From positions 53,516 through 117,515 of the IMG/VR virus record IMGVR_UViG_3300036828_000767: a stretch of DNA of 64,000 bases; one strand, given 5' to 3'. The translations under genes and the position numbers were made by a program. The notes under the pieces are model-generated. The model was given only the letters and a program-made list of their open reading frames with translations. It did no database searches and had not been told where the DNA came from. Shown in pieces: positions 1,616-63,130 of this stretch (position 1 is the first letter of the stretch; every line of letters starts with the position of its first letter). Origin of the DNA: a virus. Lineage: Duplodnaviria; Heunggongvirae; Uroviricota; Caudoviricetes.

Positions 1616-1626
1616 TGGTATACTAG
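1616..1626 (+). promoter_or_regulatory. extended -10 promoter-like motif tggTATACTag, leaderless (ATG 5 nt downstream)
   Basis: TGn+TATACT; member of a 16-copy motif family, all on + strand. Confidence 0.45.
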
Positions 1627-1630
1627 ATGT

Positions 1631-2419
1631 ATGCCCAGTGGATACCACAAACACGCCACCCCCGAACACCAGCGAATCGCCGAAAACGGCACCATCTTCC
1701 GCTGCATCGTCGGCTCCACCGTCCACGGCATCTCCGTCAAAGCCCAAGACGACCGCGACGAAATGGGAATCTGCATCGAGCCACGCGAATACGTCATCGG
1801 CCTCCGCCGGTTCGAGCAGTACATCACTCGCACCCAGCCCGAAGGCGTCAGGTCCGGCCCAGGCGACCTCGACCTCACCATCTACTCCGCCCGCAAATGG
1901 ATGAACCTCGCCCTCAACGGAAATCCCACCATCTTGCTGCCGTTGTTCGTCCCAAACGAAGCCATCATGGTGCTCCACCCGGTAGCCGAAGAACTCCTCG
2001 CCCACCCGGAGATGATCCTGTCCAGGCAGGCAGGGTACCGGTTCCTCGGCTACTGCGAAGCACAGCGACTGTCACTGCTATCCCGCGACGGCAAAGGCCG
2101 CGACGTGACCCGCGCGGAACTCGTCGCACAGTACGGCTTCGACACCAAGTTCGCCGGACACATGGTCCGCCTCGGACTTCAAGGCGTCGAGCTGATGGAA
2201 ACCGGCCGCATCTCGCTGCCCGTCCCGGAGCCGTGGCGAACCTGGATCACCGAACTGCGAGTCGGCAAGCACACTCAGAAAGAAGCCCTCGAAGTTACTG
2301 AGGAGCTGGAAGAGAAGCTCCAGCGGCTCATCCCCACCTCGCCGCTGCCGGAACACCCCGACCGGGAAGCCGCCGACCGGTGGCTCATCAGCGCCTACGA
2401 AAGGGTCTGGGCGCGGTAG
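1631..2419 (+). CDS. nucleotidyltransferase (Pol beta superfamily)
   Basis: GSTVHGISV...DDRDEMGICIEP matches the GS-x9-D-x-D(E) nucleotidyltransferase motif; 262 aa ORF. Confidence 0.55.
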   Translation: MPSGYHKHATPEHQRIAENGTIFRCIVGSTVHGISVKAQDDRDEMGICIEPREYVIGLRRFEQYITRTQPEGVRSGPGDLDLTIYSARKWMNLALNGNPTILLPLFVPNEAIMVLHPVAEELLAHPEMILSRQAGYRFLGYCEAQRLSLLSRDGKGRDVTRAELVAQYGFDTKFAGHMVRLGLQGVELMETGRISLPVPEPWRTWITELRVGKHTQKEALEVTEELEEKLQRLIPTSPLPEHPDREAADRWLISAYERVWAR

Positions 2420-2636
2420 TAGGGTGGTTCTCGCCGGGGAGTGTGCCCTGATCCAGACCGGGGCACACGTGAGTCTGGATGGTGCGCCCCGGAGCGAGGC
2501 CCCCGCCGGCGGGAGTAGCGACTCGTCCCGGCCTGGAGTTCGTCGTCCGGCGGAAAGATGGCGGGGGCACTCGCTTACCCGTCGGTGGGGATAGGTAAGT
2601 TGCCGCAGGTCAGGCTAGACATGATACCCTACCACC

Positions 2637-2948
2637 ATGGCCACCAGAACCCACACCATCGACGTCCCTCACACCACCTGGGACGCTGCCGCAGCCCGCG
2701 CCAGCGAAGAAGGCACCGACCTGTCCAGCCTGATCACCCGGCTTCTCCAGGACTACCTCAGCGTCGTACCAGACGACCAGCTTCCCAGCGCCTACCACCG
2801 GCTGTACGACCTGTGGTGGAACCAGTCCGCCACCCTCGACAGCGACCGGCCCGGCCTGTCCTATATGGCCGACGCCGAAATCGTCGAACTGGACGCAGCC
2901 GCGGAAGCCATCGAGGCCCTGCTAGTCCAGACCCGAGGGGAGACCTGA
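2637..2948 (+). CDS. ribbon-helix-helix (CopG/ParD-like) DNA-binding protein
   Basis: N-terminus HTIDVPHTTWDAAAARASEEGTDLSSLITRLLQDY resembles RHH beta-strand plus two helices; 217-bp upstream intergenic region with 8-bp-stem hairpin. Confidence 0.4.
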   Translation: MATRTHTIDVPHTTWDAAAARASEEGTDLSSLITRLLQDYLSVVPDDQLPSAYHRLYDLWWNQSATLDSDRPGLSYMADAEIVELDAAAEAIEALLVQTRGET

Positions 2949-3145
2949 TGTTCTACGCAGACCTGCGCGCCGGTGGCCCGTACCCGTGCTGCAAACACTG
3001 CTGGCGGCACAAAGGCGCCAAATCCCACCGTTTCCCTTGCCCCGTGCCCCACTGCGACGAAGGAACCATATGGTCACCGCCGAGTACTACGACACCATCA
3101 TCGAACGACTCCGCGAACGACTCGGCGAACGCGCCGAAACCCTGA
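2948..3145 (+). CDS. small Cys-rich protein (PCCKHCWRH...CPVPHC), overlapping next gene by 76 nt
   Basis: TGATG coupling to upstream stop; good GC3 for first ~40 codons; the overlap makes it uncertain. Confidence 0.2.
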   Translation: MFYADLRAGGPYPCCKHCWRHKGAKSHRFPCPVPHCDEGTIWSPPSTTTPSSNDSANDSANAPKP

Positions 3146-3600
3146 TCACGCTCTGCTACGACGCCAACGGCCTCGACTACGAGTCAGGCAAACACCGCGA
3201 ACGTAACAGGGAAGAGGAGCCATACGTCGGTGACATGATCGCCAACACCGTCTACGCCATCATCACCGGCATCGACGGCCGGCACCAAGCCGAACTGGAC
3301 GACCGCGTAGCGGAACGCCTGCACGACGAACTTTGCAACGATGGTGACACTCGGACGTGTGGCCGTTGGCGGTGTGGTACCGATCCCGCCAGCCGCTTCC
3401 ATTCACTGCATGCCGGACACGTCGATTTCTACCGTCAGATGGCCCTGGGGAACACCAGTAACGAGGACCAGGGCTTTGTCGAAGTCATCACCCCGGGCGC
3501 GTTCGACAAGACTGTCGGTGACGGCGTAGACGTGCCGGTCACCTACGATTTCGGGCCGGTCGTCGGCACCGCCCACGTCACCAAGGAGGAACCGCAATGA
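3070..3600 (+). CDS. hypothetical protein
   Basis: ATG 3070 after RBS gaagga; ORF 2986..3600 frame; high GC3. Confidence 0.5.
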   Translation: MVTAEYYDTIIERLRERLGERAETLITLCYDANGLDYESGKHRERNREEEPYVGDMIANTVYAIITGIDGRHQAELDDRVAERLHDELCNDGDTRTCGRWRCGTDPASRFHSLHAGHVDFYRQMALGNTSNEDQGFVEVITPGAFDKTVGDGVDVPVTYDFGPVVGTAHVTKEEPQ

Positions 3601-61348: not shown

Positions 61349-61429
61349 GATCGTGACCTAACCAACCGACAGGCCAAAACCGACCCGACCGGCCCTTCCC
61401 GGCCCGTGCGACTACCTTGGCGGTTCTCC

Positions 61430-62275
61430 ATGAAGAAGCGAATGCTTGCCGTGGCAACTGCGGCAGTGACAGCCGGTCTGCTGTTCCTGCCTGCCTCCTC
61501 TGTCGCTAGCCCTGGGAACAGTAACCCGCCGCTCCCGCAGATGGCGATACCCATGGGTCATGGGTCCGGGTTGTCACCGATCGAGTCGCCGTCATATGCC
61601 GGTTACGTGCTGACGGGTGGTCCCGGCTTCACATTCGTGAACACGCGGCTGACCCTCCCCACGATCACCTGCACGCAGCAGACGCTGGAACCGGAAGTGC
61701 TGCACTTTGTGGGGCTTGGCGGCTGGGGCAGCGACCCTGATTTCGCCGGGGTCAACGTAGTCGAGGCGTGCAACTCGGCGGCACAGCCTCTTTACTTCGC
61801 CTACTACGCAGACGACTGGACGAATAATGATAACTCGCCCAATATTCCGTTTTTCAGCAGCACCGGCACGGGTCCGCTGGCGCTTAACCCGGGCGACGAC
61901 CTGTATCTGTCGGTGAACTACAGCACGGCCGCGGACACTTACACCTTCAAGCTGAACGACGTGACCACCGGCATCACCTATTCCACGACGGTGAGCTGCA
62001 CCGAATGCGCCACGGTCACCGCAGAGGTGATGACGGAAACGTTCCAGAACACGGCCGGAGCGCATGCCCCGAACTTTGGCACTGCCAGCTTCAGCCAGGC
62101 CCATGCGCAGGACGTCAACCAGATGTCACCTGGCGTGCTTGACCAGTCGCCGTGGACAACGAATCAGGTCATCGACTACGGCACCAGCCAGTCGGACACT
62201 GTGGTGCTATCGTCGTCGCTTACGGACACTATGTCCGGCTCTGCGTTCACCAACACCTGGGAACATGGCAGTTAG
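61430..62275 (+). CDS. secreted peptidase A4 (glutamic peptidase G1)-like protein
   Basis: Signal peptide MKKRMLAVATAAVTAGLLFLPASSVASP; HFVGLGGWG (cf. A4 SxWVGIDG) and TAEVMTETFQ (cf. TAEWIvE); alternative GTG 61406. Confidence 0.45.
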   Translation: MKKRMLAVATAAVTAGLLFLPASSVASPGNSNPPLPQMAIPMGHGSGLSPIESPSYAGYVLTGGPGFTFVNTRLTLPTITCTQQTLEPEVLHFVGLGGWGSDPDFAGVNVVEACNSAAQPLYFAYYADDWTNNDNSPNIPFFSSTGTGPLALNPGDDLYLSVNYSTAADTYTFKLNDVTTGITYSTTVSCTECATVTAEVMTETFQNTAGAHAPNFGTASFSQAHAQDVNQMSPGVLDQSPWTTNQVIDYGTSQSDTVVLSSSLTDTMSGSAFTNTWEHGS

Positions 62276-62281
62276 GGAGCA

Positions 62282-62971
62282 GTGATGGCAGTTCTTCGAG
62301 TCGAAATCCCGATCGACCCGGCTAACCCGTTCCCGACGGGCCGTCATGTCCACCATGATGACCGGAGCCGGGACTACCCGGCGGAGCTGGCCTCGGCGGT
62401 CATCGACGTGTTCCACCAGGCGCAGGGCCTGCCGCTGAATCAGGGGCAGTTGGGGAAGTGCACCGCCGAAGGTTTGTGCGGGCGGCTGAACACCCAGCCG
62501 GGGCAGCCTGCGGCGTCGTTCCGGGTGTTCACCGACACCGACTCGGACAAGCTGTACGGCCTGGAGACGAAGAACGAGGGGCAGCCGTGGCCGCCGAATG
62601 ATCCTGGTGGGTCTGGTCTTGCGGTGTGCCAGGCTGCGAGGCAGCTCGGGTGGATCAAGTCGTACGGGCACACGTTCACGTTCAACGACGCCCTCCTGGG
62701 GCTGTCGAAGCGGCCGTTCATCATCGGAACGAACTGGTACGACTCGATGTTCAACCCGGACGCGAACGGTCTGGTGACGATCAGCCCGAACGCGGCGGTC
62801 GCTGGCGGGCACGAGTACCTGTGCGTGCAGAACCTCACCGAGCAGCAGCTTCTCGGCTTCTGGAACTCCTGGGGCAACTGGGGTAAGGGCGGGATGTTCT
62901 ACCAGACCTACGCGCAGGTGGAGCGGCTCCTCGGCGAGCAGGGCGACGTTACGTTCCCGTACGTTCGATGA
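62282..62971 (+). CDS. papain-like cysteine peptidase (possible endolysin peptidase)
   Basis: QGQLGKCTAEGLCG (Cys motif), GGHEYLCV (His), NSWGNWGKGGMF (Asn-Ser-Trp-Gly as in papain NSWG..WG..GY). Confidence 0.5.
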   Translation: MMAVLRVEIPIDPANPFPTGRHVHHDDRSRDYPAELASAVIDVFHQAQGLPLNQGQLGKCTAEGLCGRLNTQPGQPAASFRVFTDTDSDKLYGLETKNEGQPWPPNDPGGSGLAVCQAARQLGWIKSYGHTFTFNDALLGLSKRPFIIGTNWYDSMFNPDANGLVTISPNAAVAGGHEYLCVQNLTEQQLLGFWNSWGNWGKGGMFYQTYAQVERLLGEQGDVTFPYVR

Positions 62972-63087
62972 GCAGCAACCTGCCCGAGTGGGAGCAGTTG
63001 CTCAACGCCTTCATCGTGGGTGTTTCTGCTGCTGCGACCTACTTTGGGCTGACGCGCTGGTCCGAGTGGCGCAAGCGGTCGAAATGA
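62968..63087 (+). CDS. 39-aa single-TM protein (holin-like)
   Basis: ATGA coupling to the peptidase; FIVGVSAAATYFGL helix then basic C-terminus RWSEWRKRSK. Confidence 0.4.
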   Translation: MSSNLPEWEQLLNAFIVGVSAAATYFGLTRWSEWRKRSK

Positions 63088-63118
63088 CTTGCGTGCCCCC
63101 AGAACTGTGTGGTAGTGT

Positions 63119-63130
63119 AGATGTAGTATC
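63119..63130 (+). promoter_or_regulatory. promoter-like motif gtagatgTAGTATccc upstream of the RNA modules
   Basis: Degenerate family member. Confidence 0.3.

Follow-up and report, generated by a model that had tools for sequence, protein, structure and literature searches.

Which signals divide a long run of co-oriented phage genes into transcription units, and which polymerase reads them? The 64,000-nt stretch analyzed here (the window; positions 53,516 to 117,515 of IMG/VR virus record IMGVR_UViG_3300036828_000767) raises this question through a family of short motifs centered on TATACT that recur on its + strand ahead of genes. Judging from the sequence and from diverged relatives, the family most probably consists of extended -10 type promoters that are independent of a -35 box and would be read by the principal-sigma form of the host RNA polymerase. 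The initial annotation of the window had read the motifs as -10-centered promoters, co-oriented with genes, mostly without a -35 box and in some cases leaderless; this reading is supported by strand asymmetry, by position, by ATG codons placed at the predicted +1 and by conservation across lineages.

The window has a G+C content of 64% and about 120 genes, mostly small and all on the + strand except one weakly scoring call. Pfam matches are few: RlaP nucleotidyltransferase, ERF recombinase, WhiB, Band-7, pentapeptide repeats, an amidoligase/GATase pair, HNH and M23 peptidase. WhiB indicates an actinobacterial host and, taken with the best protein matches, which are to Gordonia and Mycobacterium phages (52% identity for RlaP), points more specifically to phages of Mycobacteriales. 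By these sequence criteria the source is an uncultured phage of high-GC Gram-positive bacteria (an actinobacteriophage). A Logan assembly contains the identical sequence, as does a JGI contig of 117.5 kb, which sets the genome at no less than 117.5 kb; with the 64-kb window and 8.4 kb upstream of it, reached through the related contig L126, about 72 kb of this genome was covered. The diverged relatives used for comparison (L121, L126, L127, L128, L130 and L134) are metagenome contigs only; those of their proteins that were compared are 51-81% identical to those of the window.

A strand-asymmetric motif family

All ten full copies listed in the initial annotation are present where it placed them (1616, 5129, 11838, 23744, 30311, 41802, 43698, 47061, 52159 and 54529); the 16 sites of its title are 15 in its list. 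Below, sites are also cited by the first base of the hexamer (1619, 6064, 11843, 23749, 30315, 41807, 43703, 47066, 52164 and 54534). The exact hexamer TATACT occurs 11 times on the + strand, and its five minus-strand matches are mere mirror images of AGTATACT. With the strands combined this gives 16 occurrences, compared with 2.5 expected from shuffled sequence, and TGNTATACT occurs five times where 0.13 are expected. Because the core of the motif is partly palindromic, strand bias must be tested with an asymmetric pattern. The strand-asymmetric pattern GTRGTANNCTRG was found ten times on the + strand and never on the minus strand (0.10 expected; 0 of 100 shuffles). A 15-nt weight matrix scores at least 19.5 bits at 11 + strand sites and at none on the minus strand, a count that is partly circular since the matrix was trained on those same 11 sites, so that the GTRGTANNCTRG count is the cleaner of the two. 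The best independent minus-strand score is 16.2 bits, at 63121-63135. The initial annotation had proposed a two-strand matrix scan as a check and had named equal frequency on the minus strand or in shuffled sequence as refuting; neither was observed.

The position of the motif is equally biased. GTATACT is the top intergenic-specific 7-mer of the window, with 11 of 11 copies outside our gene calls. The sites are co-oriented with the genes and lie upstream of called + strand genes, nine full copies standing just upstream of genes and one (41807) within a conserved open reading frame (ORF) of 651 amino acids (aa). They head blocks of small non-structural genes, including those for the nucleotidyltransferase, the ERF recombination block, a lipoprotein and whiB. 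Within the blocks sampled, the motif is restricted to the rightward non-structural block: the leftward gene blocks of L126, L127 and L130 have no own-strand site of 10-11 bits or more. This distribution suggests that the sites are probably early or middle promoters. The proposal that the motif defines operon boundaries holds in part, since it marks some unit boundaries while many gaps of more than 100 nt carry no copy.

The window sites have the consensus KGTRG-TAKACT-RGR, and the 26 sites collected from the window and its relatives have (G/T)GT(G/A)G-TA(T/g)ACT-(A/g)G(A/g). Counted from the predicted start of transcription, G-16, T-15, G-13, T-12, A-11, A-9, C-8, T-7 and G-5 are essentially invariant in the 26 sites, an invariance that is somewhat inflated because the sites were chosen with the matrix. 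The TAnnnT of a -10 hexamer (T-12, A-11 and T-7) is found in 10 of 10 full sites and in 26 of 26 collected ones, and T-15 in 25 of 26. G-14 is present in 17 of the 26, with A in the remainder, so the TGn extension named in the initial annotation applies to part of the family: a true TG at -15/-14 occurs in five of the ten full copies of the window, and the other half have A-14.

Leaderless starts and leaders

The hexamer predicts initiation 6-7 nt past its end. The ATG codons 1631 and 47078, both taken as leaderless in the initial annotation, start 6 nt past the hexamer, so that the predicted +1 would be the A of the ATG and the mRNAs would be leaderless. Two sites upstream of the window, on L126, would behave likewise, one with its ATG at +1 (site 5057, ATG 5069, exactly 6 nt after the hexamer) and the other with its ATG one base later (site 7472, ATG 7485, 7 nt). 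The 6-nt spacing recurs at the L121 orthologue of the 47066 site (12537, ATG 12549) and in L134 before an unrelated gene. In all, five cases in three lineages have an ATG exactly at the predicted +1, and in a sixth case the ATG comes one base later. The starts at 1631, 47078, L126 5069, L126 7485 and L121 12549 are independent calls by the sequence collection's gene caller, and none of these five leaderless candidates has room for a Shine-Dalgarno sequence. At 1631, homology to RlaP begins at the N-terminus, in the Pfam match and in tblastn alignments that start from residues 4-18. The 6-nt spacing thus looks like leaderless mRNA geometry at several sites.

An identical 22-nt block of motif plus ATG (GGTGGTATACTAGGTGGATGAC) precedes 47078, its L121 orthologue and different genes in L126 and L134. 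The block is modular, standing before three unrelated genes. At the remaining sites the predicted leaders are about 22-95 nt long and contain clear Shine-Dalgarno sequences.

A further short sequence, CCACCACC, follows the predicted start at 6 of 13 sites, spanning roughly +3 to +12, and orthologous sites retain it. It, or GACCACC, is found at 30315, 41807, 43703, 47066, 54534 and L126 5057, in leadered and in leaderless (coding) contexts, and 8 of its 14 + strand copies are intergenic.

Conservation across lineages

In the relatives, the motif stands at orthologous places before the 467-aa gene, the lipoprotein gene, the ERF block, a 208-aa gene and whiB, with flanking non-coding sequence that is largely unalignable. 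At several of these orthologous sites TAGACT replaces TATACT. Conservation is most extensive at whiB, a gene identified by Pfam: its promoter site, -35-like box and leader are kept in L127, L128 and L130, so that four lineages have in common TTGyGC 17 bp upstream, the motif, the CTGACCACCACC leader and a short upstream ORF (uORF). The six-codon uORF of the window, MHPILI*, is kept as MNRILI* in L128; L130 has a short MMG* ORF in its place. In bacterial hosts whiB7 is under leader-peptide control, of which this uORF is reminiscent.

The site at 41802 is not intergenic. It lies within the 651-aa ORF 41289-43244 (+), in which a variable linker joins a Cys-rich N-terminal domain to a conserved C-terminal part of 467 aa. 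The 552 nt before ATG 41841 encode the Cys-rich domain in five lineages, in frame with the downstream gene, and gene callers differ over the orthologues, giving products of 467, 464 and 450 aa in some cases and of 645 and 623 aa in others; in the window the called start is 41841. The 41807 motif falls in the poorly conserved linker, where four of five lineages write it as the codons GGT GGT ATA CTA and the fifth as GGT GGT AGA CTA. These codons are rare (GGT, ATA and CTA account for 15%, 10.6% and 4% of usage within their synonymous sets), and their retention while the linker diverges indicates that selection acts on the DNA and not on the protein. The site is therefore probably an internal promoter which, with an internal ribosome-binding site, would yield a separate 467-aa product; two nested products from this ORF are possible.

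Outside this lineage, matches are distant. A megablast of 8 kb against INPHARED gave no match among cultured phages, and protein matches to cultured phages are distant only, at about 30-52% identity, with no DNA match in INPHARED. A tblastn search with one window protein found no phage match, a distant blastn search with the whiB promoter region returned only chance matches to Klebsiella phages, and a protein-based scan of IMG/VR found no relative. Scanning IMG/VR with a 14-nt form of the motif gave only isolated, scattered chance matches. The 22-nt leaderless block has no match among species-representative bacterial and archaeal genomes, and hence offers no clue to the host.

-35 boxes and upstream context

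A general -35 box is not enriched: the best match to TTGACA at a spacing of 16-19 bp is 2-3 of 6 positions, the same as background. The initial annotation had found no convincing -35 element, which holds for most sites but not for a subset that carries TTGyGC or TTGTAC at 17-18 bp; at the whiB promoter, TTGyGC 17 bp upstream is kept in four lineages. A generic sigma-70 scan, which demands a -35 box, overlooked nearly all sites.

Terminators stand directly upstream of the 6064 site and of the whiB promoter (Table 1), and a weaker one lies upstream of the 52164 site. Sites without an upstream terminator are 9-58 nt from the preceding stop codon. A general link between terminators and the motif was rejected, since a clear upstream terminator is present at only 3 of about 12 sites and the other hairpin energies equal background. 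A hairpin GTGACG(C/T)AGGGTCACATTC is common to 30254-30272 and 43665-43682 (+), 35-60 nt upstream of promoter-like sites, and the copy at 43665-43682 overlaps the preceding stop codon (43666). The hairpin, a possible weak terminator or regulator site, is present at two sites only and was dismissed as a part of the family.

Recognition of the motif

How would such a motif be read? In promoters recognized by sigma-70-family factors, the hexamer is contacted by region 2, T-15 and G-14 by region 3.0 and G-5 by region 1.2. We infer that host RNA polymerase with a principal sigma factor of the SigA/HrdB type would bind TA(T/G)ACT at -12 to -7. The (T/G)GT(G/A)G at -17 to -13 matches the TRTGn or TGn extension and would be read by region 3.0, and G-5 is placed where region 1.2 would contact the discriminator. 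Given these contacts of hexamer, extension and G-5, a -35 box would be dispensable at most sites. In this comparison every conserved position of the motif corresponds to a known principal-sigma contact, and the motif looks like a strong host-type promoter without need of a -35 box. The feature is real but familiar in kind, and the promoter reading is well supported in silico.

It is instructive to compare the motif with promoters of likely hosts. In M. tuberculosis, 73% of primary start sites have TANNNT 7-12 bp upstream; a -35 consensus is lacking, the strongest promoters are of the TGN type, and many mRNAs are leaderless (PMC3898074). The principal-sigma extended -10 promoters of Mycobacteriales and other Actinobacteria resemble the phage sites in the TAnnnT hexamer 6-7 nt ahead of the start, the lack of a -35 consensus, the TG at -15/-14 (carried by about half of the phage sites) and frequent leaderless mRNAs beginning at the A of the ATG, the last predicted here from sequence. 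In contrast to the host promoters, the phage motif fixes A-9, C-8, G-16, G-13 and G-5, and half of its copies have TA at -15/-14. Among phages, SigA-like promoters predicted to have the start codon at +1 have been reported for Cluster O mycobacteriophages (PMC4351075). Like the phage studied here, Corndog and its relatives have several predicted strong host-type promoters per genome, some with the start codon's first base as +1, which mark separate operons in long co-oriented gene blocks. They differ in that they were found by a search for -35 plus -10, and both hexamers are present (PMC4351075).

The more distant Thermus phages are also informative. In P23-45, sigma region 4 is displaced by the polymerase-binding phage protein gp39, after which extended -10 phage promoters alone stay active (PMC3950348). 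The middle and late promoters of P23-45 and phiYS40, like those described here, lack a -35 box and rely on the extended -10. Transcripts of phiYS40 are largely leaderless, and its promoters have a TGTG extension similar to the TGTGG/TGTAG of this phage. The Thermus system differs in host phylum, and no gp39 homologue was identified in our phage. Cluster K phages have start-associated sequences, short conserved motifs that precede some genes at a fixed distance which includes the ribosome-binding site. In contrast, the distance from motif to start varies here from 6 to about 100 nt, which indicates that the signal acts on transcription and not on translation.

Several observations weigh against recognition by unmodified host polymerase. 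All 26 collected sites share A-9, C-8, G-13 and G-16, beyond what host SigA requires; host -10 elements have no preferred bases at their inner NNN (PMC3898074). Even allowing for the use of matrix-picked sites, constraint beyond generic sigma recognition is likely. Half of the sites have A instead of G at -14 and thus are not canonical TGn. The GTATAC core is palindromic, extending to a 10-bp palindrome at two sites, a form that a dimeric DNA-binding protein could also recognize. Genes for a phage sigma factor or polymerase may lie elsewhere in the genome, beyond the roughly 72 kb covered.

One alternative is a phage-specific promoter, in which a phage sigma factor or polymerase would read the full 15 nt or a phage factor would re-tool the host polymerase. 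We consider this unlikely, but it would explain the very high information of the motif (G-16, T-15, G-13, A-9, C-8 and G-5 across 26 sites from several lineages), which fixes more bases than host TANNNT promoters need (PMC3898074), as well as its confinement to the rightward block and its absence from the leftward blocks of the relatives. The extended -10 promoters of P23-45, favored after gp39 displaces sigma region 4, are a precedent (PMC3950348). However, the window proteins gave no Pfam match to a sigma-factor or RNA-polymerase domain, the conserved positions all match contacts of the principal sigma, and an ATG located exactly at +1, counted from a hexamer at -12 to -7, fits initiation of the sigma-70 type. 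A T7-like start at the invariant G would leave leaders of 5-6 nt without a ribosome-binding site. A T7/SP6-like promoter, with a resemblance by eye to SP6 at 10 of 16 positions, was rejected for this implication, no polymerase gene having been seen.

In a related scenario, in our analysis rather unlikely, the motif defines a -35-independent promoter class that would keep working once the phage had blocked the host sigma factor from recognizing -35 boxes, an actinobacterial counterpart of the P23-45 takeover strategy, with a phage WhiB-like protein as the switch and a remodelled holoenzyme reading A-9, C-8, G-13 and G-16. WhiB-like proteins bind sigma region 4, so the phage WhiB-like protein could be the switching factor; its gene sits behind the best-scoring copy of the motif.

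We regard it as quite improbable that the motif serves a phage DNA-binding regulator as an operator, in the manner of stoperators; such sites would block or tune transcription instead of starting it, and true promoters might overlap them. The stoperators bound by L5 gp71 in Cluster A are asymmetric 13-15-bp sites, present in many copies in short intergenic spaces and in one orientation, and they begin with GGTGG. The motif likewise occurs in many near-identical copies, mostly between genes and in one orientation, its GGTGG start is common to the L5 consensus GGTGGMTGTCAAG, and its palindromic GTATAC extends to the 10-bp palindrome TAGTATACTA at 43703 and 54534. The dyad is broken, however: the partner of the invariant G-16 is another invariant G, G-5, in place of the C that symmetry needs, and five of the ten full window copies (TGG-type) have only the 6-bp palindrome GTATAC. 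In contrast to the stoperators, whose sequence diverges after GGTGG, the phage sites hold a well-placed -10 and precede leaderless ATGs, and an operator gives no reason for an ATG at exactly 6 nt in five cases and 7 nt in the sixth. No repressor or integrase is present among the Pfam matches. Two specific forms were tried and discarded: a Cluster A-type stoperator, which matches GGTGGMTGTCAAG by eye at 8 of 13 positions, and a symmetric operator of a dimeric regulator, for which the conserved positions lack dyad symmetry, only GTATAC being symmetric at TGG-type sites.

Finally, the motif might be a product of chance or composition, or a functionless remnant of duplication, to which the sequence common to the 11843 and 23749 sites (about 45 nt upstream) and to the 30315 and 54534 sites (leader) might point. 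This reading is effectively refuted by counts 20 to 100 times those of shuffled sequence, by complete strand and position bias, by retention of the motif at orthologous sites despite diverged flanks and by the codons at 41807.

Taken as host-type promoters that need no -35 box, the sites yield a working map of transcription for a phage lineage so far represented only by metagenomic sequence. They fix several start codons, including leaderless ones, and reveal a putative internal promoter in the 651-aa ORF and candidates for non-coding RNAs. If reporters confirm its activity, the module of about 15-22 nt would be a short, strong, -35-independent promoter with an optional leaderless start for Mycobacteriales genetics. 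The general view of phage transcription is unaltered unless the extra invariant bases reflect a phage-specific factor.

Individual sites and weaker variants

Table 1. Motif copies, weaker variants and associated elements in the window (coordinates of the window; matrix score or hairpin energy where given).
Position	Strand	Element	Score	Context
1614..1628	+	AGTGG-TATACT-AGAT	23.8 bits	predicted leaderless ATG 1631 of RlaP-family nucleotidyltransferase gene
5127..5141	+	TGTGG-TATACT-AGAG	25.7 bits	predicted leader ~29 nt, Shine-Dalgarno, ATG 5173
6004..6035	+	intrinsic terminator-like hairpin + TTTT	-20.1 kcal/mol	directly upstream of 6064 site
6059..6073	+	AGTGG-TAGACT-AGAC (variant)	14.2 bits	next gene starts 6141
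11838..11852	+	TGTAG-TATACT-GGAA	26.1 bits	GTG start 11888
23744..23758	+	GGTAG-TATACT-GGGA	22.6 bits	26-codon ORF with Shine-Dalgarno from 23797, next gene 23881
30310..30324	+	TGGAG-TATACT-GGAA	22.3 bits	TTGTGC 17 nt upstream, CCACCACC in leader, ATG 30361
41802..41816	+	GGTGG-TATACT-AGAA		inside ORF 41289-43244; 34 nt before internal Shine-Dalgarno and ATG 41841
43698..43712	+	TGTAG-TATACT-AGAG	26.5 bits	lipoprotein gene next, likely start 43767; kept in L121 at 9399
47061..47075	+	GGTGG-TATACT-AGGT	22.4 bits	predicted leaderless ATG 47078, heading operon with ERF recombinase gene
50423..50437	+	GGTTG-TATACT-ACTA (doubtful)	19.5 bits	3' end of conserved small gene ending 50477
51185..51219	-	strong intrinsic terminator, 15-bp stem then seven T		about 45 nt downstream of 51268..51282
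51268..51282	-	near-palindrome GGTAGCATACTACCT	11.5 bits	overlaps ATG 51275 of conserved 122-aa gene
52159..52173	+	GGTGG-TATACT-AGAG	24.9 bits	TTGTAC 18 nt upstream, predicted leader ~48 nt, ATG 52224; kept in L121 and L128
54442..54496	+	strong intrinsic terminator, T-run	-35 kcal/mol	directly upstream of whiB promoter
54529..54543	+	TGTAG-TATACT-AGAA	28.3 bits (best site)	TTGCGC 17 nt upstream; uORF, then whiB 54640
54586..54606	+	uORF MHPILI*, six codons		strong Shine-Dalgarno; in whiB leader
63109..63121	+	GTGG-TAGTGT-AGA (GTGGTAGTGTAGA), candidate member	8.8 bits	TTGCGT 18 nt upstream

The initial annotation also listed five weaker variants, of which only the one at 6061 (TAGACT) proved a good member of the family; the other four are wrong, doubtful or on the wrong strand. 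The 6061 variant is validated by the occurrence of TAGACT at orthologous sites of relatives, and it is accompanied by a second, overlapping TAGACT at 6069, which has TTGACG 17 nt upstream. The TATACA at 21257 lacks T-7 and scores 8.5 bits, and was rejected. At 50425 the hexamer is exact but its flanks are deviant and it lies inside conserved coding sequence, which leaves it doubtful: the 15 nt encode the conserved residues VV(Y/S)YY near the end of a small gene that overlaps the following start as GTGA, the relatives have TATCCT, and L130, the most distant, has no site of at least 11 bits at the orthologous place. The copy at 63119 is poor on the + strand, where the family-like site is 63109-63121 instead.

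The site at 51269, listed on the + strand and suspected of marking a mis-called start, scores less than 8 bits there and 11.5 bits on the minus strand. Its 15 nt (51268..51282) are identical in the window, L127 and L128, and CAGGGCTTCG is conserved between the minus-strand -10-like GGTAGCATACTACCT and the terminator downstream (window 51180-51282). The stem of that terminator differs in sequence among the three lineages yet still pairs (it covaries), and a T-run follows. We judge the chances about even that 51268..51282 is a minus-strand promoter for an RNA of about 85 nt ending at this terminator, and not a mis-called start. The candidate sits in a region where every annotated gene is on the + strand.

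Besides 51268-51282, only two minus-strand matches do not mirror + strand sites: 26544-26556, with GTGGTAGGGTAGA (8.2 bits), and 63121-63135, with GGTGGGATACTACAT and the score given above. Both are intergenic, and their transcripts would be antisense to + strand genes.

Further elements of the phage

Two stretches of about 1.3-1.5 kb, 7747-9225 and 45088-46399, carry no confident gene call in this analysis, and no tRNA, Rfam match or motif copy was found in them; the collection's gene caller placed an HNH-like gene in part of 45088-46399. On L126 (1-2143), some 6-8 kb upstream of the window, the rightward gene block starts at a 34-nt divergence point, where leftward NUMOD4/HNH-like and acetyltransferase genes abut the first rightward gene. 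The motif is absent there on both strands, and the junction must therefore be served by another promoter type.

The candidate site at 63109..63121 stands ahead of an array of Y-RNA-like, tRNA-like elements. Across 63100-63620 (+) there are about four such modules, with repeated 'CGATGCGAAGG...CTACTTC' stems and T-arms of the GGTTCGAATCC type. ARAGORN found no tRNA in the array, nor was a tRNA or an Rfam family at gathering score found in the window as a whole. The ORF from 63681 has no Pfam match on the available fragment. A partial match to the Rfam family YrlA at 63532-63592 reaches 44.9 bits (E = 1e-8), below the gathering score of 69. L127 encodes RtcB and an RNA ligase. Together with RlaP and these L127 genes, the Y-RNA-like array suggests an RNA-repair or Ro-Y RNA module.

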